DNA from: a virus
Lineage: Duplodnaviria; Caudoviricetes
Length of the DNA stretch: 64,000 nt
Virus record (IMG/VR): IMGVR_UViG_3300022752_000016
Reading direction: 5' to 3' (one strand)
The notes below the pieces were generated by a model. It did not search any database. It was not told the origin of the DNA and was given only the letters and a program-made list of their open reading frames with translations. Positions 33,293 to 50,913 of the stretch are shown here, in pieces. The first letter of the stretch is position 1. Each line of letters begins with the position of its first letter. The position numbers were made by a program, and so were the translations under genes.

Positions 33293-33550
33293 ATGTCAAG
33301 AACTTTTACTGGTGAAGCAAAAAATAAATTAACCCAACTTATTAATGAAGGTTGTGCAGTGATGCATGAAATTGAAACATTGCAAGGTGGGCTTAGTGAT
33401 ACCATTAAAGCTGTAGCAGAAGAATTAGAAGTAAAACCAAGTGTGCTTAAAAAAGCTATTCGTATCGCTCATAAAGCTAATTTGGGTGCTGCAAATAAAG
33501 AACACGAAGAACTCAACGAAATTTTGGAAACGGTTGGAAAAACACTTTAA
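33293..33550 (+). CDS. dsDNA-binding protein (T4 DsbA/GapR-like)
   Basis: 85-aa helical protein; IKAVAEELEVKPSVLKKAIRIAHK. Confidence 0.6.
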   Translation: MSRTFTGEAKNKLTQLINEGCAVMHEIETLQGGLSDTIKAVAEELEVKPSVLKKAIRIAHKANLGAANKEHEELNEILETVGKTL

Positions 33551-34203: not shown

Positions 34204-34493
34204 ACAACGATATAATTTTAAACATATATTCTTGGGTAAAACAGGATTGGAAATCTAATCCTTTAAGATTTTTTATAGAATTATTGGCTTGGACTATAAG
34301 TATTGGTTGTGCCTTGATTATGGCACTAACTGTACCTAACCCTCCTCTTATGATATTATATCCATTGTGGATATTAGGATGTATACTGTATGCTTGGGCA
34401 TCATACTCAAGAAAATCATTTGGTATGTTGGGAAATTATTTGTTACTTACTTCAGTTGATATTATTGGATTAGCAAGGTTATTAATACAATGA
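34200..34493 (+). CDS. Small membrane protein
   Basis: Three hydrophobic segments. Confidence 0.7.
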   Translation: MNNDIILNIYSWVKQDWKSNPLRFFIELLAWTISIGCALIMALTVPNPPLMILYPLWILGCILYAWASYSRKSFGMLGNYLLLTSVDIIGLARLLIQ

Positions 34494-37279: not shown

Positions 37280-38011
37280 ATGAAAGATTATTTGTTAGAT
37301 TTGATTCAACATACTTATGGGTTGGGTGTGATTGAGTTAGTAAAAATTACAGGAACGAAAAAGTCCACAGAACTAAATGCAATCGCTGAGGATAAATCAG
37401 TTATTATTTCTGGTACTTTTAATACTGCTCTACCAGAGTTTGTAGGCGTGTTTGGTATGCCTAACTTAGGTAAACTTAAAACTATTCTTAGTTTTGATGA
37501 TTATGATGATAAAGCTGTTATTTCTGTAACTACAAAAAATGAAGATGGTGTTGATGTACCTGCGTCTATTCACTTTGAAACAGGAGTAGGCGATTTTGTT
37601 AATGATTACAGATTAATGAGTAAAGTGTTAGTTGAAGATAAAGTAAAACACGTAACCTTTAAAGGAACTACATGGGATGTTGAATTCGACCCAACTATCG
37701 CAGGTATACAGCGCCTCAAGAAACAAGCGCAGGCGCATAATGAGGAGCCTTATTTCACCACGAAAACAGACAAGGGTGATCTTAAAATTTACTTTGGTGA
37801 CCATAGTACTCACAATGGCAATTTCGTATTTCATCCTAGTGTAAACGGAACATTAAGTAAAAGTTGGAAGTGGCCTGTTAAAGTGTTTATTGCTATAATG
37901 GATTTACCTGGTGATAAAACTGTTAGAATCAGTGATAAAGGTGCCACTGAAGTTACTGTTAATAGTGGAATGGCAAGTTATCGTTATCTTTTCCCTGCAC
38001 AAACAAAATGA
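37280..38011 (+). CDS. DNA polymerase sliding clamp (T4 gp45-like)
   Basis: 243-aa alpha/beta protein right after PolB; a clamp loader is present; FGMPNLGKLKTIL. Confidence 0.65.
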   Translation: MKDYLLDLIQHTYGLGVIELVKITGTKKSTELNAIAEDKSVIISGTFNTALPEFVGVFGMPNLGKLKTILSFDDYDDKAVISVTTKNEDGVDVPASIHFETGVGDFVNDYRLMSKVLVEDKVKHVTFKGTTWDVEFDPTIAGIQRLKKQAQAHNEEPYFTTKTDKGDLKIYFGDHSTHNGNFVFHPSVNGTLSKSWKWPVKVFIAIMDLPGDKTVRISDKGATEVTVNSGMASYRYLFPAQTK

Positions 38012-38388: not shown

Positions 38389-39924
38389 ATGCTTAAACAA
38401 GACAATCTTTCAAGTAAACATAATCCTGAATGGGCATTGTTTTTACCTGCTATTAGTAGTTTTTATATTAGTGGATTGGGCAAACAACGTGAGGGTGAAC
38501 AGTATTTTGACCCAGCACGTATACCAATTGGTTTTAATAATGATGTTGAATGCTTAAATTTTCTTAACAGTAAACAAGGATTGTTTACATACAAATGGGG
38601 ATTATATAGTGCTGGCCATGCCAATCTTGATACTAGTGTTATTGATAATGCTGAAAGCATTATAAGAAAACGTGAGAAGGGTACTTTCTTGTTAGGTGAT
38701 AGTGGTGGCTTTCAGATTATGAAAGGCCAATGGCCTGCTGATTGGAAAGATATAAACTGTCCTAAAGCTATGAAACAACGACAAAAGGTGTTAAATTGGA
38801 TGGACACATACATGGACTATGGAATGTGTTTAGATGTGCCAACACAAACACTACGTAACAAACACTTGTTAGATAAACATGGCATATCTACAATTGAAGA
38901 AGCAGTTAGGGCTACACATATCAATAATGAGTATTTTATCCAACATCGTAATGGCGAATGTAAATTTCTCAACGTACTACAAGGATTGAATCATAAACAA
39001 TCTGATGATTGGTACGATGAAATGAAGAAGTACTGTGACCCAAAAGTTTATCCTAAAAACTATTTTAATGGTTGGGCTTTTGGTGGACAGACGAAAATTG
39101 ACATACATCTTACATTAAAGCGTATGGTGAATATTATTCACGATGGTCTGCTTGAAGAAGGCAAACACGACCTTATACATTGTTTGGGTACAAGCATTTT
39201 AGAATATGCTGTATTGTTTAGTGATATTCAAAGAGCAATACGCAAATATCATAATCCAAAATTACAAATTACTTTTGATTGTGCTAGCCCATTTTTTAGT
39301 GCTGCTAAAGGTCTTGCTTATTTCTACACTAATATTCAACATAACAAGAAATGGGCATACAGCATGGAGAAAACTGCTGAAAAGAAAAGCTATGCTAATG
39401 ATAGTCGCAAGTTTCGGGACGCTGTATTGCAAGATGGTATCCATAAGTTGTTTACAGATAGCCCTGTTACTGATAGAATGATGGTTCGTGATTTGTGTTA
39501 CAGAGGGCAAGGGTTTATTGGAGCACATGGAAAAGAAACTAAAACCAGTTGGGATACATTGAGTTATACGTTGTTACAGGCACATAATGTTTATCAACAT
39601 ATTGTAGCCGTACAAGAAGGCAATAGACAATATGATTCGGGTATTAAACCAAGTATGGTGTTAAGTCAATTTGATACAAAAGATTTCGGTAGTTTAGTTG
39701 ATGACATTTTTAGTCTAAAAGATAGAAAGAAAAGTTTAGCATTACTTGATAAGTACGATAGTTTTTGGACACAAATGAAGTCAGGTAGTCAAGGGTTTAG
39801 TGGTAAGAAAACAGTAAATGCAAGTACAATGTTTGATGAGTTATTTGAAGTAAGTGATGAACAATATGTTGATGAAGATAGTATTGACAGTGATGAATTA
39901 ATATCTGAAATGTTAGGAGAATAA
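38389..39924 (+). CDS. dpdA: tRNA-guanine-transglycosylase-like protein (DpdA-type DNA base-exchange enzyme)
   Basis: TGT motifs DSGGFQ, CLDVP, VLQG, GWAFGG, HCLG, FDCASP, HN; clustered with folE/queD/queE. Confidence 0.75.
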   Translation: MLKQDNLSSKHNPEWALFLPAISSFYISGLGKQREGEQYFDPARIPIGFNNDVECLNFLNSKQGLFTYKWGLYSAGHANLDTSVIDNAESIIRKREKGTFLLGDSGGFQIMKGQWPADWKDINCPKAMKQRQKVLNWMDTYMDYGMCLDVPTQTLRNKHLLDKHGISTIEEAVRATHINNEYFIQHRNGECKFLNVLQGLNHKQSDDWYDEMKKYCDPKVYPKNYFNGWAFGGQTKIDIHLTLKRMVNIIHDGLLEEGKHDLIHCLGTSILEYAVLFSDIQRAIRKYHNPKLQITFDCASPFFSAAKGLAYFYTNIQHNKKWAYSMEKTAEKKSYANDSRKFRDAVLQDGIHKLFTDSPVTDRMMVRDLCYRGQGFIGAHGKETKTSWDTLSYTLLQAHNVYQHIVAVQEGNRQYDSGIKPSMVLSQFDTKDFGSLVDDIFSLKDRKKSLALLDKYDSFWTQMKSGSQGFSGKKTVNASTMFDELFEVSDEQYVDEDSIDSDELISEMLGE

Positions 39925-40300: not shown

Positions 40301-40759
40301 ATGGATCAAAGACAAATAATGTTACAAGATAAAATTAATCGTATAAAACAAGAAGCCAAACGTATGATTTGGGTAACTTTTCGTAAAGAAGGTATTCATA
40401 AATACCCAGCAGCTAGTGAAGATCCTAAGCTGAAAACAGGAGATGAGTATGACGTTTCGTTTTTGGGTTACCCTCATAGGCATATATTTCATTTTACCGT
40501 TGGTATTGAAGTATTTCACAACGATAGAGATATTGAATTTATACAATTCAAACGTTGGCTTGAACGATTGTATTCTGGCAACCAAGGTGTATTGTCGTTA
40601 GATTATAAAAGCTGCGAAATGATTAGCGATGACTTATACGTTACAATTGCTAATCGTTATCCAGAACGTGATGTCCATATCACTGTTAGTGAAGATGGCG
40701 AGAATGGCGCCACAATTTGTTACAACACAACTAAACCTAGCCTATCAATTAAAATATAA
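40301..40759 (+). CDS. QueD-like T-fold protein (candidate DpdL-type CDG decarboxylase)
   Basis: LGYPHRHIF (LxxxHRHxF), IEFIQFKR, SCEMI, VSEDGENG. Confidence 0.6.
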   Translation: MDQRQIMLQDKINRIKQEAKRMIWVTFRKEGIHKYPAASEDPKLKTGDEYDVSFLGYPHRHIFHFTVGIEVFHNDRDIEFIQFKRWLERLYSGNQGVLSLDYKSCEMISDDLYVTIANRYPERDVHITVSEDGENGATICYNTTKPSLSIKI

Positions 40760-40768
40760 AGGAAAATA

Positions 40769-40972
40769 ATGGCAAAAGTAAACTTTAAAAATAGTTCAAC
40801 ATATAACAAAATCTTTGAAGATTTAGAGAAGTATTTAGAATTTTGTAGAGAGTATGGGTACACATTTAATGAATCAGACCTATATACTAATAGGAGCAAT
40901 TCATATCGTAATTACCAAAAACATATTACAGGTAAACCAGTAAAAAATATGTGGGAAACAGATGGAAAATAA
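40769..40972 (+). CDS. Hypothetical protein
   Basis: 67-aa ORF with AAGGA RBS. Confidence 0.65.
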   Translation: MAKVNFKNSSTYNKIFEDLEKYLEFCREYGYTFNESDLYTNRSNSYRNYQKHITGKPVKNMWETDGK

Positions 40973-41750
40973 TCAATATACTGTTGTATTAGTTACAGGT
41001 GGGTTTGACCCTATCCATAGTGGTCATATCGCTTACTTTAAAGCAGCAAAAGAATTAGGGCATCAATTAGTTGTTGGCCTAAATAGTGATGAATGGTTAG
41101 CTAGGAAAAAAGGTAGACCATTTATGCCATTGGCAGAACGTGCTGCTATTATTAGTGAATTACGTGTTGTAGATGGTTATATAACTTTTGATGATAGCGA
41201 TAATTCTGCTAAAAATGCAATTAAATATTGTCTAGAAAATACATTTAATAATGAGCGTATTATATTCGCTAACGGTGGGGATAGAACACAAGAAAATATT
41301 CCTGAAATGGAGATTGTAGATCCCAGACTAGAATTTTGGTTTAATGTTGGTGGCGATAACAAAATGAATTCTAGTAGTTGGATATTACAAGAATGGAAGG
41401 CTCCCAAAACAAATAGACAATGGGGTTATTATCGTGTATTACATGAAGATGGTCCTAATGTAAAACTTAAAGAACTAACAGTAGAACCAGGTAAAAGTTT
41501 AAGTATGCAGAAGCATAATAAACGTAGTGAGTTTTGGTTCGTTAGTAAAGGTGAGGCTACTGTTAATACATTAAACTCAAAAAGTGATGTAGAACAATTA
41601 GGTGTTTATAATAAACATGAACATTTATTTGTACCAAACGAACGTTGGCATCAATTATGTAATAATGGATCAGAACCATTAAAACTTATTGAAATCCAAT
41701 ATGGTGAACAATGTATTGAAGATGATATTGAAAGAAAAACACAAACATGA
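40962..41750 (+). CDS. Cytidylyltransferase (RfaE-II-like) fused to a mannose-6-phosphate-isomerase-type cupin
   Basis: GGFDPIHSGH, GLNSDEWLARKKGRP; RQWGYY...VEPGKSLSMQKHNKRSEFW. Confidence 0.85.
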   Translation: MENNQYTVVLVTGGFDPIHSGHIAYFKAAKELGHQLVVGLNSDEWLARKKGRPFMPLAERAAIISELRVVDGYITFDDSDNSAKNAIKYCLENTFNNERIIFANGGDRTQENIPEMEIVDPRLEFWFNVGGDNKMNSSSWILQEWKAPKTNRQWGYYRVLHEDGPNVKLKELTVEPGKSLSMQKHNKRSEFWFVSKGEATVNTLNSKSDVEQLGVYNKHEHLFVPNERWHQLCNNGSEPLKLIEIQYGEQCIEDDIERKTQT

Positions 41751-41914
41751 TTGATAAAGTATTTTGGGGTTCTATCATAGTGTTTTTTTGTATTGCTATT
41801 GTTTTAGTAATACAAGGTATACACGATCTAGATGAGTATATTAGTAACTGTAAAGGGCTAGTTGTTAAAACTCCAGATGGCTGGGTTTGTTCTAATGCAC
41901 AAAAGGTTAATTAA
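41747..41914 (+). CDS. Small membrane protein (55 aa, not in ORF track)
   Basis: MIDKVFWGSIIVFFCIAIVLVIQG...; coupled at both ends. Confidence 0.6.
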   Translation: MIDKVFWGSIIVFFCIAIVLVIQGIHDLDEYISNCKGLVVKTPDGWVCSNAQKVN

Positions 41915-43089
41915 TGCGTAAACTATATTATATGGGATTGGAGCCTTATAAAGCACGTTATACATTACAATTACAAGAATGGAATCGTAGTGTATTTGAA
42001 CGCAGGCGTATAAACTATCATATGGTTGAAGGAAAAACCTTAGGCAATGATAAAGCTATAGTAATAGGACAAGTCTTAGATGCACATGGTAGGACATACT
42101 TTGGAATGAGCCAACTTATGAACTTAGTTCATTTAATGAAATTAGGACAGGTTACCTCTAATGATGTAATTTATTTTGAGGATATGTTTCAGCCAGGCAT
42201 AGAAAGTTTACCCTATATTTTAAATCAAATAGAAAAAAGACATAAGCCTAAGATATTTGTACGTTGTTTGGCACAAAGTATTGATCCAGATGACTTTGTA
42301 CATGTATGGGGCATGAGTAAATGGATGGGTCATTATGAAAAAATGGTAGATAGTTTTGTAGATGGTGTACTAGCAAGTAATGAAGAAATGGTAGCACATA
42401 TGAAGATTGCTGGTTGGACTAGTCCTATCTATAATATATCTGGATTGGCATTCGGTAAAGTAGAAGTTCAAAATAGAGTAAATAGTATTAAGCCCTTTGA
42501 TGAAAGGGCGATGCGTGTAGTTTTTTCAGCGAGATGGGATCAGGAAAAACAGCCTGACTTTTACATGGACCTGATTGAAGCTTGGCACAATATTGAAGGA
42601 CTTCCAAAGGTTGAATTTGCAGTGTGTAGTGGAAGTAAGCTACGGTCAAATAATCAAAGTTATATGGAACGCACATACAAATTAGTTGATGAAGGTAAAC
42701 TTAAGTTATATGAAGATTTAGAAAAAAACGATTATTATAATATTCTTAATGATAGTCGTTGTGTGTTTAACTGTGCGTTACAAGATTGGGTCAGTAATAC
42801 AGTAAGTGAGGCTGATGCATTAGGATGTAATGTTTTATACCCTGCATATCGTAGTTTTCCTGAAACCTTCTCCAACGACGCCTCTAGACTATATGTTCCA
42901 TGGTCTATCAAAGATGCTATACTTAAATTAATTCCATTACTAGAAAATCCACATAAAGATATTGGAAAAATTAGTGATTATACTGATAAAACAATAGATA
43001 GAATTTGTGATATACTTGAAGGTAATGGTAAACAATATTTACGTATGGAAGTAGATTATCGCAAACATAATAGGGAATATAAATTTTAA
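41914..43089 (+). CDS. Glycosyltransferase (GT-B/GT4-like)
   Basis: FSARWDQEKQP, WVSNTVSEADALGCNVLYP. Confidence 0.75.
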   Translation: MRKLYYMGLEPYKARYTLQLQEWNRSVFERRRINYHMVEGKTLGNDKAIVIGQVLDAHGRTYFGMSQLMNLVHLMKLGQVTSNDVIYFEDMFQPGIESLPYILNQIEKRHKPKIFVRCLAQSIDPDDFVHVWGMSKWMGHYEKMVDSFVDGVLASNEEMVAHMKIAGWTSPIYNISGLAFGKVEVQNRVNSIKPFDERAMRVVFSARWDQEKQPDFYMDLIEAWHNIEGLPKVEFAVCSGSKLRSNNQSYMERTYKLVDEGKLKLYEDLEKNDYYNILNDSRCVFNCALQDWVSNTVSEADALGCNVLYPAYRSFPETFSNDASRLYVPWSIKDAILKLIPLLENPHKDIGKISDYTDKTIDRICDILEGNGKQYLRMEVDYRKHNREYKF

Positions 43090-43167
43090 ATAAATAATTT
43101 TAATGTAAATAATTGTGACTAAAACCTTTAGTCAAGTCTATATATCCGTGTAAGGAAGGATTAAAAA

Positions 43168-43848
43168 ATGAGTTATAATAAAACTAAAACAGACCCTGAA
43201 TTGGGTAAAAGAGTAAATGAGTACTTAGTAAAAATGGGCGTACAAACTCCCGCAGCGAAATCAAGACACGATAGAAAAACTCAAATTGAATTAATAGAGC
43301 AAAATTTTACTGCTATTATGAACATCTTAGGATTGGATCTACATGATGATAGTTTAGCTGAAACTCCAAAACGTGTAGCAAAAATGTATGTAAATGAAAT
43401 ATTTTGGGGTTTAGACTATGAAGCTTTTCCTAAATGTACCACAGTAAATAATAAAATGAAGTATAATGAAATGGTGGTAGAAAGAAATGTATCAGTTCAG
43501 AGCAATTGTGAGCATCATTTTGTGGTTATTGACGGTCTTGCTACTGTGGCATATGTACCTAAGGATAGAGTATTGGGTCTTAGCAAAATCAACAGAATTG
43601 TGGAGTATTTTAGTAAACGCCCTCAAATTCAAGAACGTTTAACAGAACAAATTTTTCATACATTACAATATATTCTTGATACAGAAGATGTTGCTGTTAT
43701 GATTGATGCACAACATTACTGTGTAAAAAGCAGAGGTGTTGAGGATACAGGTAGTAGTACTGTAACAAGTCGTTTGGGTGGTGGATTTAAAAATGATGTT
43801 GCTGTGCGTAATGAATTTTACAGTATTGCAAGGAGTTCATCTAAATGA
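43168..43848 (+). CDS. folE: GTP cyclohydrolase I
   Basis: ETPKRVAKM, SNCEHH, GLSKINR, RPQIQERLT, HYCVKSRG. Confidence 0.96.
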   Translation: MSYNKTKTDPELGKRVNEYLVKMGVQTPAAKSRHDRKTQIELIEQNFTAIMNILGLDLHDDSLAETPKRVAKMYVNEIFWGLDYEAFPKCTTVNNKMKYNEMVVERNVSVQSNCEHHFVVIDGLATVAYVPKDRVLGLSKINRIVEYFSKRPQIQERLTEQIFHTLQYILDTEDVAVMIDAQHYCVKSRGVEDTGSSTVTSRLGGGFKNDVAVRNEFYSIARSSSK

Positions 43849-44012
43849 GTTGTAATATCTGTAAAAAAGAGTATAGTCCCAATTGTGATTATAATCAGGG
43901 TAGATGCCCACATCATAGGCCTTTAATAACAAATCCTTATCCATTATGGTTAATAATTTTATTTGTAGCAGTTGTACTATTTTATAGTACTGGGAATAAT
44001 TATGGGTTTTAA
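43845..44012 (+). CDS. Small Cys-rich membrane protein (55 aa, not in ORF track)
   Basis: MSCNICKKEYSPNCDYNQGRCPHH plus a hydrophobic helix; coupled start. Confidence 0.5.
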   Translation: MSCNICKKEYSPNCDYNQGRCPHHRPLITNPYPLWLIILFVAVVLFYSTGNNYGF

Positions 44013-44235
44013 AAAACCTGAATTGCAAACTGCAACAGACATTATTTTTCAAGCTATATATGAAACTCATAGTAAATACAACGATGGTTTTACCCAGTTT
44101 GAAATTAAAAAAGATTTATATAAGCTTAAGTGGATAATGGATGATTATTTTAAAAAAGCAGATAAGTTTCAAGGGGAAGATGAATGGGTTGAAAAGATAT
44201 TACAACAAAGAGTATGGGAGTTACTTAAAAAATGA
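44002..44235 (+). CDS. Hypothetical protein
   Basis: ATG 44002. Confidence 0.6.
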   Translation: MGFKKPELQTATDIIFQAIYETHSKYNDGFTQFEIKKDLYKLKWIMDDYFKKADKFQGEDEWVEKILQQRVWELLKK

Positions 44236-45071
44236 CAGAGAAAATATTAATAATGGGACTACCAGGTTCGGGTAAAACATATTTTGCAGAACGTTTAAAA
44301 AAATATTTAGAGATAAATGGAGAAAAGTCTTTATCCAAAATTGATTCGGATCGCCCTTATCCAATGCTTAATGTAAAAGTAGATTGGTTTAACGCAGATG
44401 ATATACGTAAAAAATTTAATGATTGGGACTTTAGTAAAGAAGGTAGAATCCGTCAAAGTTTGCGTATGGCAGAATTTGCAATTCGTTGTAATGGGGAATA
44501 TGTAATTTGTGATTTTGTTGCTCCTTTACCTGAAATGAGAAATAATTTTAAAGCTGATTGGACCATATGGATGGATACAATTGATAAAGGTCGGTATAAA
44601 GATACGAACAAAGCATTTGTGCCCCCTGACATTTATGATTTTCGAATTAATGAACAAAATTGTGAACGTTGGGTACCTTATGTTGGTGAAATGATTATTA
44701 GGAAAAAGCGTAGACCAATCTTTGATTGGCGTAAAGAAACAGTGCAAATGTTAGGTCGTTGGCAACCATGGCATCTTGGGCATCGTGCTTTGTTTGAACG
44801 CTTGCTAAGTAAGACAGGACAAGTTATAATACAAATACGTGATGTACAAGGATGGCAAAATAGTAACCCGTTTAGTGTTGAAGAAGTTAAAAATTATATA
44901 AAACGTGATTTAGATCCATTATATCAAGGTCAATATGAGATTATGTTAGTTCCAAATATTGTACACATTGGTTGGGGCCGGGGAGTAGGATATACAAGTG
45001 GAGAAGAACTTTTTGATGAAGAAATAACAAAAATAAGTGCAACAGAAATAAGGAAACAACTTGGTTTATAG
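44232..45071 (+). CDS. Adenylylsulfate-kinase-like domain fused to a HxGH nucleotidyltransferase domain
   Basis: GLPGSGKT, NADDIR, FSKEGRIRQ, CDFVAP; LGRWQPWHLGH, NPF. Confidence 0.75.
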   Translation: MTEKILIMGLPGSGKTYFAERLKKYLEINGEKSLSKIDSDRPYPMLNVKVDWFNADDIRKKFNDWDFSKEGRIRQSLRMAEFAIRCNGEYVICDFVAPLPEMRNNFKADWTIWMDTIDKGRYKDTNKAFVPPDIYDFRINEQNCERWVPYVGEMIIRKKRRPIFDWRKETVQMLGRWQPWHLGHRALFERLLSKTGQVIIQIRDVQGWQNSNPFSVEEVKNYIKRDLDPLYQGQYEIMLVPNIVHIGWGRGVGYTSGEELFDEEITKISATEIRKQLGL

Positions 45072-45072
45072 T

Positions 45073-45747
45073 ATGTGGGAAAATATAAAATTACCATTGG
45101 TAATACTTTCTAGTCCAAGATCTGGTTCTACTGTTTTACTAGACACTATTCGTAATTATTTAAATGACAATAATGTAAATTTTACAGACATAGGCAGTGA
45201 ACCAATTACACATGAAGATCGGTCTTTTGAACGTTATGAAAAATTAAACCACAATTTAACAACAAATAATTTCATTTGTAAACTTCATGTTTTTCAACTT
45301 AAAACAATTTATCCAATGTTTTTTTTTGATAATATACTTCAAGGAAAATACTTTTTAATAAGGATTAGGAGAAAAAATATTGCAGAACAATTAGTAAGTC
45401 TTTACATAAGTCATGTGTATGGAGAAAAAGAAATTTTCCAAAATTCAAAAGAATCAAATAAAAAATACATTGAAAATAAAAAAATTCCAATTGATAAATT
45501 TATTATGGAACAAGTAATAATACGTGGCATGCACCATATACATCTTTTAGAAAATTTTAATTGTAAATTTGATTTAGATTTATGGTACGAGGATATAATA
45601 TTCAACTCAAAGAAGTATTACAAACCAAAACCTCCTAGTAATTATAAAGAATTAGTTGATAGAGTTAGTAACATTGTACAAGATAAAACTTTTGACTCGT
45701 TAATAAAAACTATAAAAGTTCATCCATTGACCCTTAAATCGACATAA
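45073..45747 (+). CDS. Sulfotransferase (Stf0-like)
   Basis: 5'-PSB loop ILSSPRSGST; RRKNIAEQLVS; WYED. Confidence 0.75.
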   Translation: MWENIKLPLVILSSPRSGSTVLLDTIRNYLNDNNVNFTDIGSEPITHEDRSFERYEKLNHNLTTNNFICKLHVFQLKTIYPMFFFDNILQGKYFLIRIRRKNIAEQLVSLYISHVYGEKEIFQNSKESNKKYIENKKIPIDKFIMEQVIIRGMHHIHLLENFNCKFDLDLWYEDIIFNSKKYYKPKPPSNYKELVDRVSNIVQDKTFDSLIKTIKVHPLTLKST

Positions 45748-45750
45748 AAA

Positions 45751-46425
45751 ATGTTTACCAATTTAAAATTACCTATTGTTATACTTTCTAGTCCAAGATC
45801 TGGTTCTAATGTTCTTTATGATACTATTTGTAATTATTTAAGTGATAATAAAATACACTATGTTGGTACAGGAGTTGAACCTTTATTATTTGATAATTAT
45901 AATGATACAAAAAGTTTAAAAAAGTTTGATGAAATAATAGCAACGAACAATTTTGTAACAAAAATTCATGCTATACATTTAAAAAAGTTATACCCTAATT
46001 ATTTTGTACAAAATATTTTGCAAAAAAAATATACCATTGTTAGGATAAGACGAAGAAATATAATTGAACAATTAATTAGTCTATACATTTGCACACTTAT
46101 TGATATTATCAATAAAGGAGATGAACTTATTTGGTCAAACACTAAAAAAAGTAATAGATTGATTGAAGATAAAAAAATTCCCATTTATGAAGATGTTTTA
46201 AAAAAGGTTATAAATTATGGAATATTAGCAATAACATACTGTGAAAATTTTAATTACAATTTTGATTTAGACTTATATTATGAAGATTTATCGTTTAATT
46301 CAAAAAAACACTTTAAACCAACAAAAAAACCTAGTAACTATGAAGAATTGCACACAATTTTTAGCGATCATTTAGCAAAAATTGATTTTAAACAGAACAA
46401 CGATATATTAAATACCCTTTTATGA
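45751..46425 (+). CDS. Sulfotransferase (Stf0-like), tandem paralog
   Basis: ILSSPRSGSN; RRRNIIEQLIS; YYED. Confidence 0.75.
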   Translation: MFTNLKLPIVILSSPRSGSNVLYDTICNYLSDNKIHYVGTGVEPLLFDNYNDTKSLKKFDEIIATNNFVTKIHAIHLKKLYPNYFVQNILQKKYTIVRIRRRNIIEQLISLYICTLIDIINKGDELIWSNTKKSNRLIEDKKIPIYEDVLKKVINYGILAITYCENFNYNFDLDLYYEDLSFNSKKHFKPTKKPSNYEELHTIFSDHLAKIDFKQNNDILNTLL

Positions 46426-46622
46426 TGAATTCAAAAGATAATAGTATTATACTACGAATGTCGGAACTAATGAAACCTATTGATAAACAAATAATGATGA
46501 CGAATGATGATAAAGAATTACTTATGCTGGCGTGTGCTATGTTACAACGTGTAACAGAAATATTTGATAACACATTAACAGTAACTGGAAGAAAAAAAAT
46601 GTTTAGCGATTTGATTAAATAG
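46422..46622 (+). CDS. Hypothetical protein
   Basis: 66-aa coupled ORF. Confidence 0.65.
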   Translation: MMNSKDNSIILRMSELMKPIDKQIMMTNDDKELLMLACAMLQRVTEIFDNTLTVTGRKKMFSDLIK

Positions 46623-46701
46623 TATTAGTGGTCTAAGGCATTCATCCCACTTTAAATATTCTGCATGTCATCAAACTTACTCAGCTTAAAGGAGGCAAGA
46701 G

Positions 46702-47172
46702 GTGGCAAAATTTATTTCAACAAAAACATATAACCAAATCGGTCCAGTGGCATATCGTCAATGGCGTGCGGATAGTCATTGTAATTTGATACATGGATAT
46801 GCATTGAGTTTTCATTTTGAATTTGAAAGTGAAACGCTTGATGCTAGAAACTGGGTAGTAGATTTTGGTAGTCTTAAACCTTTAAAAGGATTATTGGAAG
46901 AATGGTTCGATCATACGCTACTAGTAGCAGAAGATGATCCTATGAAAAATGAATTATCTAGATTGGGAGAATTGGGACTAGCAAAAATTACAATGGTAGA
47001 ACGAACAGGGTGTGAAGGTATTGCTGATTGGTTATACGAATACATTAATACTTGTTGGTTAAAAGATTATGGGTATGATGAAAGAGTGTGGTGTTGTAAA
47101 GTGGAAGTAAGAGAGACTGATGCTAACATGGCAATGCGTGTTGGAAGTAGGTCAGATAATGAATTCGTTTAA
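46702..47172 (+). CDS. queD: 6-carboxy-5,6,7,8-tetrahydropterin synthase
   Basis: SHCNLIHGY, WVVDFGSLK, FDHTLL, VEVRETDAN; GTG start with AAAGGAGG RBS. Confidence 0.85.
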   Translation: MAKFISTKTYNQIGPVAYRQWRADSHCNLIHGYALSFHFEFESETLDARNWVVDFGSLKPLKGLLEEWFDHTLLVAEDDPMKNELSRLGELGLAKITMVERTGCEGIADWLYEYINTCWLKDYGYDERVWCCKVEVRETDANMAMRVGSRSDNEFV

Positions 47173-47183
47173 AAAGGAAACAA

Positions 47184-47555
47184 ATGAATAAAGTTTTATC
47201 AGACCAAAAGCAGTTTATGACAGCTTGTGGTCAAACAGTAGATACATATAATTTAGAGCAATTCAATTTGTATAAATCATTAATTGGAGAAGAAGTAGGT
47301 GAACTCATTCATGCTTGTCAACTAAATGACAGAGTAGAACAATTAGATGCACTTATTGATATTTTAGTTGTTACGGCAGGAGCAATACATAGTTTAGGGG
47401 TTGATGGTGAAGCTGCTTGGAACGAAGTTATGCGAACAAATTTTGCAAAAGTTGACCCAGTTACTGGAAAAGTACGCCGTCGTGAAGATGGTAAAATTCT
47501 TAAACCTGATGGTTGGACACCACCACAACTACAATCATTTGTAAAAAATATTTAA
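47184..47555 (+). CDS. MazG-like/all-alpha NTP pyrophosphohydrolase
   Basis: LIGEEVGEL...LDALIDILVV...NFAK...REDGKILKP. Confidence 0.85.
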   Translation: MNKVLSDQKQFMTACGQTVDTYNLEQFNLYKSLIGEEVGELIHACQLNDRVEQLDALIDILVVTAGAIHSLGVDGEAAWNEVMRTNFAKVDPVTGKVRRREDGKILKPDGWTPPQLQSFVKNI

Positions 47556-47557
47556 TT

Positions 47558-48397
47558 ATGTCACAGTTAAAAGTAAGCGAACTATTCTATAGTATCCAAG
47601 GTGAGGGCCGATATATGGGTGTACCAAGTGTGTTCCTTCGTGTGTTTGGATGTAACTTTACATGTGGTGGATTTGGTATGCCACGAGGACAAACTAGTAA
47701 TCAACGTAATGAAATTAAGGTAGAATTATTTAAAGATTATAAAGAACTACCATTGGTATCTACTGGGTGTGATAGTTATGCAAGTTGGGATCCTAGGTTT
47801 AAACATCTTAGCCCAGTTCTTGATACAAATACAATCGTAACTAGTATACTAGATTTATTACCTACTGGGTATTGGCAAGGAGAACATTTAGTTATTACAG
47901 GTGGCGAACCATTGTTAGGTTGGCAACGTAATTATCCTGATTTACTAGGACATGATTTTATGGAACATTTAAGTGATATTACGTTTGAAACTAACGGTAC
48001 GCAAAAATTAACAAATGTTTTTTATGATTATCTTAAGGATTGGTCAAAAAGTAAAAACGGTGAAGTAACATTTAGTGTAAGTGCAAAGTTACCAAACAGC
48101 GGTGAAAAGTGGGATGAAGCAATCAATCCAGATATAGTATGTCAATATCAAGAAGTTGGCTATACATATTTAAAATTTGTAGTAGCAACTGAAGATGATA
48201 TTGAAGATGCCGAAAAAGCAGACAGCGAATTTAGAAATGCAGGATTTGTTGGGCCCACTTATATTATGCCTGTTGGTGGTGTTGATAGTGTATATAATTT
48301 AAACGCAAAGAATGTAGCATTAGCAGCTATGAAACGAGGTTGGCGTTATAGTGATAGACTGCAAGTACTACTATTTAAAAACGAATGGGGAACATAA
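47558..48397 (+). CDS. queE: 7-carboxy-7-deazaguanine synthase (radical SAM)
   Basis: ELFYSIQGEG, FLRVFGCNFTC...GCDS, VITGGEPLL, FETNGT, RLQV. Confidence 0.88.
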   Translation: MSQLKVSELFYSIQGEGRYMGVPSVFLRVFGCNFTCGGFGMPRGQTSNQRNEIKVELFKDYKELPLVSTGCDSYASWDPRFKHLSPVLDTNTIVTSILDLLPTGYWQGEHLVITGGEPLLGWQRNYPDLLGHDFMEHLSDITFETNGTQKLTNVFYDYLKDWSKSKNGEVTFSVSAKLPNSGEKWDEAINPDIVCQYQEVGYTYLKFVVATEDDIEDAEKADSEFRNAGFVGPTYIMPVGGVDSVYNLNAKNVALAAMKRGWRYSDRLQVLLFKNEWGT

Positions 48398-48579
48398 TGA
48401 AAACATATATAATTACTAGAAATCAATACGAAAAAATTAAAGAGGTGTTTGAAATGTACGATACAATTGACTATGTAAAAATACATGAAGAAAGTACGTC
48501 TGGTATAGGACCAACAACAACATTAGAATTTAATCCAAGCTTTGTTAAAGTTGATATTACTGATGTTGAAAGTTGGTAA
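48397..48579 (+). CDS. Hypothetical protein
   Basis: ATG overlaps the queE stop. Confidence 0.6.
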   Translation: MKTYIITRNQYEKIKEVFEMYDTIDYVKIHEESTSGIGPTTTLEFNPSFVKVDITDVESW

Positions 48580-48767
48580 TGTTAGTAGGAACTGACTATA
48601 AATTTTTATTATTTCCCAAACGCTGTAGTTTAACAAACAAGTTATTATGGCTTTGTTATGCATATGAGCATATTCATTTATACACAGGACTTGGGGAACC
48701 TTTATTTGAATACAAATATTATGATAAGAAGCATTATTTGGTAAATAAGTTAAAGGGTGTATTGTGA
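48579..48767 (+). CDS. Hypothetical protein
   Basis: Coupled ORF. Confidence 0.55.
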   Translation: MLVGTDYKFLLFPKRCSLTNKLLWLCYAYEHIHLYTGLGEPLFEYKYYDKKHYLVNKLKGVL

Positions 48768-50092
48768 GAACTTACGACAAACGGATTGGTTTCATTGTTA
48801 GTAGTCAAACACTAATCCCACATGGTGGTATAGGACAATTTGCAAAAAGTTTTTGTGAGTTAATGAACGAACATAATATTAAAGTTGATATTATTACAGA
48901 TAAAGAACCCAATGATAAAGACTTTGTAAAATCACTTAATACTAAAGTTATAACGCCGTCAGTGTCATTACCTTATACGAATCATAGTAATATTTTTATG
49001 TATGGAGATACATATTGCTATGAGCGTATGGCTAACTTTCGTAATGCTATTATACAGGCATTAGAAAATAATTTATATGACGCATTCATATGCAACACAT
49101 ATGAAAGTGTTCAAGTTGCAAGTACAATTGGTTTAGAGGATGTAATTAAAATTATAGCCTACACTCATTTGGAAAGTCAAATATTTAAGGATACTAAAAA
49201 TCCCTTTTTAGCATCTACCAATCAAATGATGCGTATGCAACTTAAGTTGAATGGTATATACATAGGAACACAAAGTAAGTTCAATCAGTTAACCATTGGA
49301 GATAGTGCTTATCATTTACCTATTCCTATTACAGAAAAGAAATTACTTAATAAGTTTGATAATGCTAGGGAGGGTGTTTTGTTTATTGGACGCTGGGAAG
49401 AAGGCAAGAATCCTGAACTGTTTATTGAATTGATAGAGCAAACAAAACTCCCAGCAAAAGTAATGACAAGCCCAAATGGTGTTAAAAAGTTTGAAGATAG
49501 GTTAAAAAGGATTAATGCAAAGTATGAAATACGTGCTAGCATTATTGGACAGGAGAAAGTAGATTTTATTACAAGTGCTAGAATAGCTTTTAATCCTAGT
49601 ATTGTTGAAAGTTATGGTATGGCTTTTTACGAACAAATGATACAAATGCCTACTGTAGTATTAGAAAATCAAAGATGGACAAATAATTTTGATTCAAACT
49701 ATTTCTATACGTGTAATAAAAAGAACATGGCAGAAATAGTCATGGGGTTATACAAGAATGTGCCAACATCTGATGTTTGGTATAAAAATGGTATTATTGA
49801 AAAGTATCGTAGGATAGAAGATCAGGTGTTTCATAAATGGAACAATTGCTTTAGTGATTTTAAATGTAGGGAATCAAACTCAACCACAGCTAAAATATGT
49901 AATGAAACTACAGTTAAACTATCAGATTATATTAGTAGCCTAAAAAGGAATTTAATTTGTATAGACGATATCCGTAGCGTATTAACTAATAAACATAAGT
50001 TTCGTATAATTTACACAGACAATGATACATATCTAACGAAAGACCCTAGTTTTGAACCAACAGATACAGAGGATTTATTTGAAGGATTATGA
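48764..50092 (+). CDS. Glycosyltransferase (GT-B/GT4-like)
   Basis: HGGIGQF, LFIGRWEEGKNP, FNPSIVESYGMAFYE. Confidence 0.8.
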   Translation: MRTYDKRIGFIVSSQTLIPHGGIGQFAKSFCELMNEHNIKVDIITDKEPNDKDFVKSLNTKVITPSVSLPYTNHSNIFMYGDTYCYERMANFRNAIIQALENNLYDAFICNTYESVQVASTIGLEDVIKIIAYTHLESQIFKDTKNPFLASTNQMMRMQLKLNGIYIGTQSKFNQLTIGDSAYHLPIPITEKKLLNKFDNAREGVLFIGRWEEGKNPELFIELIEQTKLPAKVMTSPNGVKKFEDRLKRINAKYEIRASIIGQEKVDFITSARIAFNPSIVESYGMAFYEQMIQMPTVVLENQRWTNNFDSNYFYTCNKKNMAEIVMGLYKNVPTSDVWYKNGIIEKYRRIEDQVFHKWNNCFSDFKCRESNSTTAKICNETTVKLSDYISSLKRNLICIDDIRSVLTNKHKFRIIYTDNDTYLTKDPSFEPTDTEDLFEGL

Positions 50093-50913
50093 AGAAAATA
50101 CTAATAACAGGAAATAGTGGTTATATTGGATCGCATCTTACCAAGCTACTAAGCAAAGATTATGAAGTACATGGATTAGATAAAAAAGATTTGATTGTAC
50201 CAGTAAAAGAATTTTACAAATTAGATATTAACCGAAAATTTGTATTGCCTATAGAATTTGATTGTGTAGTGCATTTAGCAGCATTGGTTAATGTGGGCGA
50301 AAGTGAAACCAATTCAATAAATTATTACATCACCAATGTAAATGGTACAATGAATGTATTAGCAAACATTAAAACTAAAAACTTTATATTTTCTAGTACA
50401 GGAGCAGCGGAATTTTGTAAAAGTGCATATGGTGTAACAAAACGATCAGCAGAATATATTATAAAAGAATATTGCACACTTCATTCACAAACTCCATATA
50501 CTATTTTTAGATTTTATAATGTCATCGGTAATGATGGAATTAACCCAACAAATCCAGACGGATTATTTTATAATTTAATTAAAGCTAAAGATACAGGTAC
50601 TTTTACTATATATGGCAAAGATTATGAAACACCTGATGGCACTTGTTTACGTGACTATGTACATGTTAATGAAATTTGTCATGCAATTAAAACCGCAATA
50701 GAAAAACCAAGTAATAGTATTGAATGTCTTGGACATGGTGTAGGATACAGCGTTAAAGAAATTGTAAATAAATTTCAAATTGTAAATCAGTGTGATTTTG
50801 ATATTAAATATGGACTAAGACGATTAGGTGATTTACCTGTCAGCGTATTAGAAGATGTGTCGCCATATATGGAAAATTTATATACTATTGATGAATTACT
50901 TAAAGTTACATAA
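50089..50913 (+). CDS. NAD-dependent epimerase/dehydratase (GalE-like)
   Basis: ITGNSGYIGSH, HLAA, YGVTK, RFYNV, DGTCLRDYVHV. Confidence 0.9.
   Translation: MKKILITGNSGYIGSHLTKLLSKDYEVHGLDKKDLIVPVKEFYKLDINRKFVLPIEFDCVVHLAALVNVGESETNSINYYITNVNGTMNVLANIKTKNFIFSSTGAAEFCKSAYGVTKRSAEYIIKEYCTLHSQTPYTIFRFYNVIGNDGINPTNPDGLFYNLIKAKDTGTFTIYGKDYETPDGTCLRDYVHVNEICHAIKTAIEKPSNSIECLGHGVGYSVKEIVNKFQIVNQCDFDIKYGLRRLGDLPVSVLEDVSPYMENLYTIDELLKVT

Follow-up and report, generated by a model that had tools for sequence, protein, structure and literature searches.

The genome of a giant lake phage, IMGVR_UViG_3300022752_000016, carries genes for sugar activation and transfer interleaved with genes for 7-deazaguanine synthesis. 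The question raised by this locus is whether the sugar genes serve the deazaguanine pathway, so that a glycosylated 7-deazaguanine would be placed in DNA, or belong to a separate glycan pathway that merely lies in the same place. The window analysed is the whole 64,000-nucleotide stretch.

The genes from 40962 to 50913 form a single co-directional run on the + strand, with a DpdA-like gene and a DpdL gene directly 5' of its start. The cluster is set among replication genes, from PolB to FEN. The initial annotation had described a cytidylyltransferase-cupin fusion, a GT-B glycosyltransferase before folE, and a second glycosyltransferase and an epimerase after queE. All four are present as described; a kinase fusion, two sulfotransferases and MazG had been missed. 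The features, with the evidence for each, are:

38389..39924, + strand: DpdA-like DNA/tRNA-guanine transglycosylase, TGT fold, 511 aa (motif, Foldseek)
40301..40759, + strand: DpdL-type QueD paralog, T-fold, proposed CDG decarboxylase (LxxxHRHxF signature)
40769..40972, + strand: conserved 67-aa ORF in the DpdL-GT1 interval (same position in 73/80 related loci)
40962..41750, + strand: HIGH-type nucleotidyltransferase (HldE domain II / TagD-like) fused to a PMI-type cupin (Pfam, NCBIfam)
41914..43089, + strand: GT1, GT-B (GT4-like) glycosyltransferase (AF2 model, GT4-type structural neighbours)
43168..43848, + strand: FolE, GTP cyclohydrolase I (PF01227, E 1e-61)
43972..44235, + strand: small conserved ORF 3' of folE (same position in 29/80 related loci)
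44232..45071, + strand: APS-kinase-like P-loop kinase fused to a short HIGH-nucleotidyltransferase segment (PF01583, phrog_10255)
45061..45747, + strand: Stf0/NodH-like carbohydrate sulfotransferase, copy 1 (Atlas feature and structure scores)
45751..46425, + strand: sulfotransferase-like paralog, copy 2 (shared SSPRSGS motif)
46702..47172, + strand: QueD, CPH4 synthase (PF01242, E 4e-16; phrog_2389, E 2e-41)
47184..47555, + strand: MazG-like nucleotide pyrophosphohydrolase (PF01503, E 4e-12; phrog_671, E 3e-37)
47513..48397, + strand: QueE, CDG synthase, radical SAM (phrog_2076, E 1.5e-52)
48573..48767, + strand: small ORF (directly 5' of GT2 in 24/80 related loci)
48764..50092, + strand: GT2, second GT4-type glycosyltransferase (GT4 motifs, hhalign to GT1)
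50089..50913, + strand: GalE-like NAD-dependent sugar epimerase/dehydratase, short form (PF01370, TIGR01179)

The deazaguanine core

By homology, FolE, QueD and QueE convert GTP to 7-carboxy-7-deazaguanine. QueD has the motif CNLIHGY, QueE is kept in all 34 complete related loci, and QueC is absent from the 64-kb window. In the DpdL gene product, the published DpdL signature LxxxHRHxF (PMC10516641) takes the form LGYPHRHIF, and its family has the invariant residues H33, H59-R60-H61, F63 and S104-C105-E106. A Pfam search with the DpdA-like protein returned zero matches. The protein has a DSGGFQ motif and the invariant residues D104, D149, Q198-G199 and D297, and the top 50 Foldseek matches of its AF2 model are all TGT (E about 4e-7). 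Its gene, too, is kept in 34/34 complete loci. FolE, QueD and QueE, together with the DpdL-type T-fold protein and the predicted DpdA-like enzyme of TGT fold, make up by homology the published DpdL-type pathway for 7-deazaguanine in DNA.

A known example of this route is the DpdL/DpdA3-type 2'-deoxy-7-deazaguanosine system of Cellulophaga phage phiST (Cui, Hutinet et al., NAR 2023, PMC10516641). Like the present locus, it has FolE, QueD and QueE but no QueC, and its QueD paralog bears LxxxHRHxF. In both, the TGT-fold transglycosylase is highly divergent, the cluster includes a MazG-type hydrolase (MazG/dUTPase in phiST) and the genes lie beside the DNA polymerase. That DpdL is a decarboxylase is a prediction, and the activity was not obtained in E. 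coli (PMC10516641). Unlike the present locus, phiST lacks both a GT1 homolog and sugar genes, whereas the module found here always includes GT1, joined by GT2, an epimerase, nucleotidyltransferases and sulfotransferases. The DpdA encoded here is most similar to the PA5oct one (35%), and a tblastn search with it gave no match in phiST or ACP17.

A glycosyltransferase linked to DpdL

GT1 ends 78 bases 5' of folE. Its Pfam glycosyltransferase matches are all sub-threshold (E 2e-3), and its AF2 model has a GT-B fold (pLDDT 94). The closest structural matches are the GT4-type BshA, MshA, glycogen synthase and PimA (E about 1e-11), and the neighbours are mostly small-molecule enzymes (BshA, MshA, SenB, LmbT). 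R207 and K212 are invariant in the family and D291-x7-E299 is conserved. In sequence and model, GT1 looks active, with the predicted nucleotide-sugar donor-site residues intact. The family is acidic, with a median pI of 5.9. Relatives with 73-94% identity occur on more than 600 IMG/VR contigs, 791 clusters are found in a 50%-identity library, and the ACP17 homolog superposes on GT1 with a TM of 0.75-0.84.

The initial annotation had named co-occurrence of this glycosyltransferase family with dpd genes as a check on its proposal, and the association proved complete. Every one of the distinct loci that extend 3 kb or more to each side of GT1 has a DpdL-type T-fold gene no farther than 3 kb away (72/72), and these loci span 11 GT1 clusters at 50% identity. 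FolE is found in 65 of them, DpdA in 63 and QueE in 60, counts that are limited by contig ends. The pattern extends to distant members of 30-54% identity, with DpdL upstream or downstream of GT1 in 20/20 loci. Across the 72 loci, the 11 clusters and several gene orders, no GT1 family member stands apart from the DpdL/QueE/FolE/TGT cluster. Over 61 loci, the distance between two GT1 proteins follows the distance between the DpdL (r 0.90) and QueE (0.87) proteins of the same loci.

Seven cultured phage groups carry GT1 with DpdL (PA5oct, ACP17, BUDD/X1, BCSR5, Phosso, BUCT-ZZ01). In BUCT-ZZ01, ACP17 and BUDD, the GT1-family match covers most of the protein and lies within a FolE/QueD/QueE/TGT cluster; in the PA5oct-group phages, Phosso, X1 and BCSR5 it adjoins DpdL. 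The genes for DpdA, DpdL and GT1 are contiguous in PA5oct, ACP17 and BUDD, and in ACP17 the reading frames of DpdA and GT1 share four bases. The remaining cultured-phage matches are a different GT4 with GlmS/BshB neighbours. A scan of 185,579 bacterial and archaeal species, with one genome each, found only six GT1 loci, all on MAG contigs; the five full-length matches all carry the same phage cluster. The GT1 family is phage-restricted.

Comparative genomics shows that GT1 is integral to the deazaguanine route wherever the family occurs, and is no passenger. Of the two branches that the initial annotation had left standing, a glycosylated deazapurine or a glycan that merely co-locates, the co-occurrence with DpdL favours the first for GT1. 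Of the 12 cultured lineages with DpdL, about 6 also have GT1. That about half of the lineages have DpdL without GT1, and that phiST, which is one of these, makes plain dDG, fits a GT1 that acts after DpdL.

The second glycosyltransferase, the epimerase and the accessory genes

The Pfam match of GT2 is likewise sub-threshold (E 2.5e-5). Its family alignment contains the GT4 signatures PHGGIGQF, GRWEEGKNP and E282-x7-E290, and its C-domain matches that of GT1 with an hhalign probability of 94%. GT2 is present in 21/34 complete related loci, and the BUCT-ZZ01 deazaguanine cluster contains a 38% homolog. The epimerase matches the NAD epimerase/dehydratase family PF01370 (E 1.5e-30) and, below cut-off, the GalE model TIGR01179 (E 4e-44); the protein is short, at 274 aa. 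An SDR of its family is found in 31/34 complete loci and always adjoins a glycosyltransferase, either GT1 or GT2. Glycosyltransferases and epimerase are retained in three layouts: GT1..QueE-GT2-Epim; GT1-Epim without GT2; and QueE-FolE-GT2-X-DpdL-GT1-Epim-QueD. A stand-alone nucleotidyltransferase occurs in 16/21 complete loci with GT2, versus 0/13 without it.

The fusion at 40962-41750 combines a CTP_transf_like domain (residues 11-83, E 7e-14; HldE domain II-like, E 8e-21) with a mannose-6-phosphate-isomerase-type cupin (residues 149-258, E 3e-23), and is a candidate for NDP-sugar supply. It is found in 5/34 complete loci, each time immediately 5' of GT1. The kinase fusion (PF01583, E 7e-7; CTP_transf_like, E 3e-3; phrog_10255, E 9e-41) occurs in 14/80 related loci, and its Atlas neighbours are APS_kinase plus CTP_transf_like proteins, common in viruses. 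Sulfotransferase copy 1, with zero matches in a Pfam search, has a P-loop-like motif, SSPRSGST, Atlas feature scores of 0.94-0.97 to Sulphotransf/Sulfotransfer_3 clusters and a structural TM of 0.64-0.68 to Stf0 and NodH clusters. Copy 2 is its paralog, SSPRSGS being present in both, and an IMG/VR pattern scan found zero relatives of it. Sulfotransferase homologs adjoin the kinase fusion and are seen in only 2/80 related loci.

The accessory slots of relatives are also filled by unrelated genes, such as an Sbt_1 bicarbonate transporter, Cpn60, peptidases S8 and S11, Bax1-I and homing endonucleases. For the nucleotidyltransferase-cupin, kinase and sulfotransferase genes, co-location therefore counts for little by itself, and they may be passengers. 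For these genes the second branch of the initial annotation, a co-located glycan, still stands.

A proposed DNA hypermodification and its alternatives

The cluster probably makes a glycosylated 7-deazaguanine hypermodification of DNA, a reading that is given a probability of about 55%; in this best explanation, the region from about 38.4 to 50.9 kb would be one hypermodification island. GT1 would use an NDP-sugar as donor and glycosylate the 7-deazaguanine moiety, either as the free base before insertion by DpdA or as a base already in DNA. The acidic family and the small-molecule structural neighbours fit a free-base acceptor better than DNA. GT2 would add a second sugar, with the HIGH-type nucleotidyltransferases and the GalE-like epimerase supplying or tailoring the donor. 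Here and in the nearest relatives of this genome, the sugar may also be sulfated, by the kinase fusion together with the two Stf0-like sulfotransferases. MazG may deplete a competing nucleotide. Virion DNA would then bear glycosyl-7-deazaguanine in place of some or all G. 7-Deazaguanine has no hydroxyl of its own to which a sugar could be joined, so any acceptor atom is a matter of speculation: the sugar might sit on N2, as it does in huimycin, or on C7/C8 in the electron-rich pyrrole ring.

Parts of this pathway have parallels elsewhere. In the huimycin cluster, the glycosyltransferase HuiG lies amid FolE/QueD/QueE and glycosylates a 7-deazapurine base at the 2-amino group (PMC7439116), a likeness by description, and the disaccharide placed on the 7-deazapurine of dapiramicin requires sugar-tailoring SDR enzymes (10.64898/2026.04.15.718813). 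Unlike the present locus, both are actinomycete secondary metabolite systems that build on preQ0; they include QueC and an O-methyltransferase but lack a transglycosylase. The vertebrate queuosine glycosyltransferases QTMAN (GTDC1) and QTGAL resemble the proposal in decorating a 7-deazaguanine nucleoside within a polynucleotide. GTDC1 is classed in GT4. They differ in their acceptor: they modify queuosine in tRNA at its cyclopentenediol hydroxyls, which could not be formed here without QueC and the Q-pathway enzymes; neither enzyme is among the top 30 Swiss-Prot structural matches of GT1.

Several other explanations must be considered. It is very improbable that the glycosyltransferases act on a hydroxymethyl-pyrimidine, with the deazaguanine genes as mere neighbours. 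All known DNA glycosylation does proceed through a pyrimidine hydroxymethyl, or a hydroxyl in one recent report, and a 2OG-Fe(II) oxygenase gene (33550-34203) lies 4 kb upstream. However, this oxygenase is of the 2OG-FeII_Oxy_5 type rather than TET/JBP and is found in 2/80 related loci, most of which stop short of that upstream region. Across lineages, the gene that always accompanies GT1 is DpdL rather than one for a 5mYOX or thymidylate-synthase-like protein. GT1 is no relative of T4 AGT/BGT, the analogy drawn in the initial annotation; it is GT4-like and has no close structural kinship with those enzymes: alpha-GT-like proteins rank 28 or lower among its matches, with a TM of 0.47. A sugar that stays outside the final DNA is unlikely but less so; GT1 would then yield a soluble glycosylated 7-deazapurine, as an inhibitor, storage or export form. 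N2-glycosylation of a free 7-deazapurine base by a glycosyltransferase is known (PMC7439116), and the acidic pI of the GT1 family and the small acceptors of its structural neighbours would also fit a product that never enters DNA. Against this, the TGT-fold DpdA-like gene is kept with GT1 wherever the flank allows, the cluster sits among replication genes, and secondary-metabolite deazapurine clusters characteristically have no insertion enzymes (10.64898/2026.04.15.718813). Equally unlikely is a helper role, in which GT1 would be needed for the synthesis or insertion of plain 7-deazaguanine, perhaps by forming a transient glycosyl intermediate or by partnering DpdA or DpdL structurally, with dDG as the end product. 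The tight adjacency of GT1 to DpdA and DpdL would suit such a role, and DpdL and DpdA of the GT1-bearing ACP17 yielded no dDG in E. coli, where, as the authors suggested, further enzymes might be needed (PMC10516641). Since the phiST pair failed there as well, the ACP17 result is not specific to a missing GT1. Moreover, phiST reaches 100% dDG without any GT1 homolog, and the conserved nucleotide-sugar-site residues, the partner epimerases and the second glycosyltransferase argue for real, stoichiometric sugar use.

An insertion hotspot is a more serious possibility, although still tentative: the nucleotidyltransferase-cupin, the kinase fusion, the two sulfotransferases and possibly GT2 and the epimerase would serve a virion-fibre or host-envelope glycan. 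The unrelated genes in the same slots of relatives favour this, as do the collagen-like and Thr-rich proteins encoded in the window and the position of the BUDD GT2 homolog, far from its deazaguanine cluster. Stf0/NodH-type enzymes sulfate the sugars of glycolipids and signalling oligosaccharides, which also counts for a separate glycan. Cyanophage clusters of a cupin isomerase, a HIGH-nucleotidyltransferase and glycosyltransferases have been read as surface-polysaccharide systems (PMC7824862). On the other hand, the rearranged BUCT-ZZ01-type layout has core deazaguanine genes on both sides of GT2, the epimerase keeps its place beside a glycosyltransferase in nearly all complete clusters, and the nucleotidyltransferase-cupin, where present, directly precedes GT1. 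A separate glycan of this kind would not include GT1, and is compatible with the main explanation.

A glycosylated 7-deazaguanine in DNA would resemble the clusters of 5hmC-glycan phages and the T4 alpha- and beta-glucosyltransferases, where phage glycosyltransferases likewise lie inside a DNA-modification cluster (10.1101/2023.12.21.572611; PMC13216743). The 5hmC glycosylation clusters include sequential glycosyltransferases, and pairs of a glycosyltransferase with a donor-supplying sugar epimerase (10.1101/2023.12.21.572611). Unlike here, their substrates are hydroxymethyl-pyrimidines from methyltransferase/TET-type or thymidylate-synthase-type enzymes, and no purine case has been described. 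The literature yielded no description of a sugar-bearing purine in DNA and no published nucleoside mass spectrometry for GT1-bearing phages. The modified DNA of PA5oct resists cleavage at G-containing restriction sites (PMC12191111). The probable role of the pyrimidine systems and of this locus alike is restriction evasion. If the proposed glycosylation of 7-deazaguanine is true, it would place a sugar-bearing purine in phage DNA.

The gene run and its deazaguanine core

From the gene for a family-B DNA polymerase (PolB) to position 50913, the window carries a run of genes that all lie on one strand and point in the same direction (+).

Genes of the run, in order (coordinates, strand, description)
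34490-37198, +, PolB, start of the run
37280-38011, +, conserved 243-aa protein, between PolB and DpdA
38389-39924, +, predicted DpdA-like protein, 511 aa, DSGGFQ motif
40301-40759, +, DpdL-type T-fold protein, 152 aa
between DpdL and the next entry, +, 67-aa ORF
40962-41750, +, HIGH-nucleotidyltransferase/cupin fusion
41914-43089, +, GT-B glycosyltransferase GT1, then FolE, then a small ORF
44232-45071, +, APS-kinase-like/nucleotidyltransferase fusion
45061-45747 and 45751-46425, +, two sulfotransferase-like paralogs with an SSPRSGS motif
between this pair and GT2, +, QueD, MazG and QueE in that order, then two small ORFs
48764-50092, +, GT2, putative second glycosyltransferase
50089-50913, +, GalE-like SDR (the epimerase), end of the run

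The initial annotation had described sugar genes interleaved with deazaguanine genes between 40962 and 50913. Window ORFs and family searches recover every element that it named, each in its place, and add the kinase fusion, the two sulfotransferase-like genes and MazG to the run. A megablast search of the whole run against INPHARED gives no match; the run has no close nucleotide kin among deposited phages. The region from 37 to 53 kb has no Rfam match at E <=1. The same holds for the queD leader (46623-46701) under permissive filters, leaving a preQ1-type riboswitch unsupported, and promoter and terminator scans give no excess over shuffled expectation.

The 243-aa protein recurs in 68 of 80 related loci, between PolB and DpdA. 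Phage PA5oct has a homolog with 30% identity in the corresponding place (L087:5290-6036), annotated as a virion structural protein detected by mass spectrometry. Outside the cluster, 17 kb upstream, 23648-24454 encodes another protein, of 268 aa, whose domain is cytidylyltransferase-like (E 4e-8).

FolE, QueD and QueE are all found in the run by family searches, and no ORF scanned between 37 and 56 kb of the window matches the QueC family. The signature LxxxHRHxF was used by Cui, Hutinet et al. to define DpdL, a proposed CDG decarboxylase (PMC10516641). The T-fold protein of the run fits it exactly, with LGYPHRHIF at residues 55-63; across 34 sequences H59, R60, H61 and F63 do not vary, and the protein is 34% identical to that of phage phiST.

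The 511-aa protein has no Pfam match, and its alignment reaches TGT families in profile searches at E ~0.5 only. Because these matches are weak, an AF2 model was made, and all of its top 50 Foldseek matches are TGTs. DSGGFQ and further Asp residues are invariant. By its model and its motifs, the 511-aa protein is a DpdA-like enzyme.

Some relatives carry additional purine genes. Of 80 loci, 13 have an IMPDH/GMP-reductase-family gene and 6 a phosphoribosyltransferase gene (L065:12061-13101, L080:6028-6558), and in phage BUCT-ZZ01 an annotated xanthine-guanine phosphoribosyltransferase lies between QueE and QueD (L081:4093-4554). The biosynthesis of tubercidin combines CDG with a phosphoribosyltransferase and a GMP reductase. 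Since these genes match that logic, some of these phages may also process deazapurines at the nucleotide level.

GT1 and its link to the deazaguanine genes

The Pfam glycosyltransferase matches of GT1 are all sub-threshold. An AF2 model built on a 49-sequence family alignment (pLDDT 94, pTM 0.91) has two Rossmann-like domains in a GT-B fold. Its best Foldseek matches are BshA, glycogen synthase, MshA and PimA (E ~1e-11, TM 0.6-0.7), and SenB and LmbT are also among its nearest GT4-type neighbours in PDB and Swiss-Prot structures. R207 and K212 are invariant in the 49 sequences; D291 is nearly so, and in a closer set both residues of D291-x7-E299 are invariant. By motif position, this pair of acidic residues and the Arg/Lys pair are assigned to the diphosphate-binding and donor motifs of GT4. 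Conservation at these positions indicates that the nucleotide-sugar site is under selection.

The T4 DNA glucosyltransferases BGT and AGT are both absent from the top 50 PDB matches of GT1. A BFVD search places proteins named DNA alpha-GT at ranks 28 and 33 with TM ~0.47, compared with 0.75-0.86 for true family members. By its predicted structure, then, GT1 is outside the T4 AGT and BGT families. Its own family is large and well conserved: more than 600 IMG/VR contigs carry members at 73-94% identity, a set of 5.8 billion proteins holds more than 8000 near relatives, and a 50%-identity library contains 791 clusters. One member, P0161 (L084:1888-3855), has 655 aa with ~290 extra C-terminal residues and adjoins a DpdL gene.

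The 80 closest loci all keep one order: PolB, DpdA, DpdL, small ORF, GT1, FolE, QueD, QueE. Such constancy could reflect shared ancestry, and distant members were therefore sampled. A 32%-identical representative lies between DpdL and QueD/QueE/FolE; a 30%-identical one has DpdL on one side and a radical-SAM gene on the other, and a DpdA-like gene is close by. In all 17 further loci reached with distant queries, GT1 has DpdL as its immediate neighbour, before or after it, and FolE, QueE or both are present as well. When results are pooled over each distinct GT1 locus that has 3 kb or more of sequence to either side, DpdL lies within 3 kb of GT1 in every one (72/72, representing 11 clusters at 50% identity). 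The initial annotation took a distribution of this glycosyltransferase family independent of dpd genes as evidence against its proposal; the sampled loci show no such independence.

The same association is seen among deposited phages. All those with a full-length GT1 match carry DpdL (BUCT-ZZ01, ACP17, BUDD, X1, the PA5oct group, Phosso and BCSR5), and in the records inspected the glycosyltransferase sits within the deazaguanine cluster. The only remaining deposited matches (72% coverage, 25% identity) belong to a different GT4 with GlmS/BshB-type neighbours. A pattern scan across the genomes of 185,579 species of bacteria and archaea returned six loci, all on MAG contigs, and the five with a full-length GT1 match bear the same phage cluster. 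Protein P0262 as a query has no match in viral or genome contigs, and the ACP17 glycosyltransferase retrieves ACP17 alone from IMG/VR.

Pairwise divergence of GT1 follows that of DpdL (r 0.90) and QueE (0.87) far more closely than that of FolE (0.47), as a descriptive measure among related sequences. Prediction of a GT1-DpdL complex with two alignments (A1 and A2) scores 0.00, a verdict neither way. Overall, GT1 is strongly linked to the deazaguanine pathway, and the link is very probably real.

The association is asymmetric. DpdL is found in about 12 cultured lineages, and in roughly half of these GT1 is not detected (phiST and kin, RHph_I1_18, Bakedbeans, Ahp1_CNU-2021, D479 and MA9V-3); among the sampled loci there is no case of GT1 without DpdL. 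In phiST, which has no GT1, G is fully replaced by plain 2'-deoxy-7-deazaguanosine (dDG), and none of the phages analysed by mass spectrometry in that work bears GT1 (PMC10516641). DpdL and DpdA from ACP17, where the GT1 gene is placed between the two, yielded no dDG in E. coli, and its authors proposed that further enzymes may be needed (PMC10516641). The DNA of PA5oct resists restriction at G-containing sites (PMC12191111). Read most simply, these observations place GT1 after DpdL, acting on what that branch produces.

Several other neighbours were observed at related loci. In RHph_I1_18, which has DpdL without GT1, a macro-domain (Appr-1-p processing) gene directly follows DpdL (L193:7408-8232). 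A distant GT1/DpdL/QueD/QueE/FolE cluster is followed, ~5 kb further downstream, by a gene for a UDG-domain protein of 408-411 aa (L085:9372-10607). The most distant GT1 module (DpdA-like, DpdL, GT1, radical SAM; L086:1-7866) lies beside resolvase, RES-domain and replication-protein-like genes, and may sit on a non-phage mobile element.

The second transferase and the other sugar and sulfate genes

GT2 has a sub-threshold Pfam match, and a PDB profile search with its alignment gives no match at E <=0.01. Three motifs show little or no variation across 41 sequences: PHGGIGQF, GRWEEGKNP and E282-x7-E290, which correspond to the glycine-rich N-terminal loop, the R/K pair and the E-x7-E of GT4. 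Its C-terminal domain also aligns with that of GT1 (hhalign, 94%, E 1e-7). On these sequence features, GT2 is classed as a putative GT4-type glycosyltransferase.

How closely these genes follow the core can be judged from 34 related loci in which the cluster is complete. DpdA, DpdL, GT1 and QueE are each present in 34 of 34. An epimerase-family SDR follows with 31, GT2 with 21, a stand-alone HIGH-nucleotidyltransferase with 16, the kinase fusion with seven, the nucleotidyltransferase-cupin fusion with five and the sulfotransferases with one. The stand-alone nucleotidyltransferase is found in 16 of the 21 loci with GT2 and in none of the 13 without it, a co-variation among related loci and not a count of independent events. 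A 172-aa protein with no family match, encoded between DpdA and DpdL (L045:1728-2246 and 22 other loci), is present in all 13 complete loci without GT2 and in no complete locus with it.

Three layouts are seen. In the window, GT2 and the epimerase follow QueE. Where GT2 is lacking, a full-length epimerase/dehydratase lies directly 3' of GT1. In the rearranged layout, common to Synechococcus phage BUCT-ZZ01, the order is QueE-FolE-GT2-X-DpdL-GT1-Epim-QueD. Because both are retained through rearrangement, GT2 and the epimerase appear to work with the cluster.

The sulfotransferase-like pair has no Pfam or NCBIfam match, and a sulfotransferase query retrieves no relatives from IMG/VR. Both proteins carry SSPRSGS(T/N) near the N-terminus. 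By language-model features (scores 0.94-0.97) and fold (TM 0.64-0.68 to Stf0/NodH clusters, the family being named on a minority of top-cluster members) they resemble Stf0/NodH carbohydrate sulfotransferases, which serves as a lead. The kinase fusion was considered as a NadR-like NAD-salvage enzyme and as a mini PAPS synthase; its nucleotidyltransferase segment (~110 aa) is too short to decide.

The variable slots of relatives (L001-L080) hold unrelated genes, including a bicarbonate transporter, Cpn60, peptidases S8 and S11, Bax1-I and homing endonucleases, and the region is thus also an insertion hotspot. Further sugar genes occupy the same slots (GDP-mannose dehydratase, RmlD-like, sugar C-methyltransferase, PfkB kinase, DegT aminotransferase). 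The nucleotidyltransferase-cupin gene lies directly upstream of GT1; its co-location with the cluster, like that of the kinase fusion and the sulfotransferases, is only suggestive. One related cluster holds a gene for a Vut_1 (YhhQ-type) transporter, a family known for uptake of queuosine precursors.

A possible pathway and its place among known systems

Homology shows a route in which FolE converts GTP to H2NTP, QueD forms CPH4 and QueE forms CDG. Published work suggests that DpdL would then turn CDG into 7-deazaguanine, which DpdA would exchange for G in DNA. We propose that GT1 moves a sugar from an NDP-sugar onto the deazaguanine moiety, that GT2 would lengthen this sugar, and that the epimerase and nucleotidyltransferases would furnish the donors. 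The sugar may be sulfated by the Stf0-like pair, for which the kinase fusion could provide PAPS, and MazG perhaps removes a competing nucleotide. The acidic pI of the GT1 family (median 5.9) and its small-molecule-acting structural neighbours make us lean toward the free base as acceptor. The position of the cluster among replication genes and its constant TGT partner argue that the pathway ends in nucleic acid.

The module resembles a DpdL-type dDG system of the phiST kind with a glycosylation layer added. It shares with that type FolE, QueD and QueE without QueC in the window, a QueD paralog with LxxxHRHxF, and a TGT-family enzyme. Clusters for glycosylated 5hmC offer a second comparison; in these phages a glycosyltransferase with its own epimerase, and sequential glycosyltransferases, have been shown experimentally (10.1101/2023.12.21.572611). 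Similar adjacencies occur here between GT2 and the epimerase, and between GT1 and the epimerase in layouts that are rearranged or lack GT2. Unlike those clusters, the window is missing the defining enzyme that forms a hydroxymethyl-pyrimidine: no 5mYOX/TET-JBP or thymidylate-synthase homolog lies beside a glycosyltransferase in the run, and the nearby oxygenase is of the 2OG-FeII_Oxy_5 type, not TET/JBP.

Small-molecule pathways would be another use for such genes. A huimycin-type cluster combines a preQ0 core (QueC) with an O-methyltransferase and has no enzyme for insertion into nucleic acid; the present run differs in having a TGT-fold enzyme and neither QueC nor a methyltransferase. FolE, a T-fold protein and GT1 could also be imagined as makers of a pterin glycoside, comparable to cyanobacterial biopterin glucoside. 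This idea was rejected, given QueE and a TGT-fold enzyme in every cluster and a T-fold protein without the catalytic Cys of PTPS/QueD.

Of the explanations considered, the best is that virion DNA contains a deazaguanine bearing a sugar, with a probability of roughly 55%. The initial annotation had offered two readings for the sugar genes: a glycosylated deazapurine or other hypermodified base, or a co-located glycan pathway for fibres or the host surface. The first is partly supported, in that GT1 is tied to the deazaguanine pathway by its constant DpdL partner; for the remaining sugar and sulfate genes, a role in the modification is plausible but unproven.

The described glycosylated DNA bases are all pyrimidines with a hydroxymethyl or hydroxyl handle, and the described phage 7-deazaguanines bear small C7 groups or none. 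7-Deazaguanine itself has no hydroxyl. C-glycosylation at its electron-rich pyrrole ring is chemically conceivable; we know of no precedent for it with the enzyme type of GT1. N2-glycosylation of a 7-deazapurine base has precedents in huimycin (PMC7439116) and dapiramicin (10.64898/2026.04.15.718813). A full-text search, covering part of the journals, found no paper that ties a glycosyltransferase to phage deazaguanine clusters and no report of glycosylated deazaguanine in DNA. The boldest version of the proposal is a long shot: that giant freshwater phages of a very abundant clade replace guanine with a sugared 7-deazaguanine, the sugar here extended by GT2 and sulfated by the Stf0-like pair. 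The sugar would be an N2- or C-glycoside, because the hydroxymethyl O-glycoside of all known cases is ruled out for this base.

If true, a glycosylated base of the purine type and a sulfated base would both be new to DNA. That a glycosyltransferase is fixed in a DpdL-type pathway leads us to predict a chemically new class of DNA base; the gene arrangement itself occurs in thousands of metagenomic sequences and in cultured phages, including the therapy candidate PA5oct. A requirement for GT1 may account for the unsuccessful reconstitution with ACP17 DpdL and DpdA. Such a base would also present a new target for restriction enzymes, modification-dependent nucleases and DNA glycosylases, and would be relevant to the sequencing and engineering of these phages.
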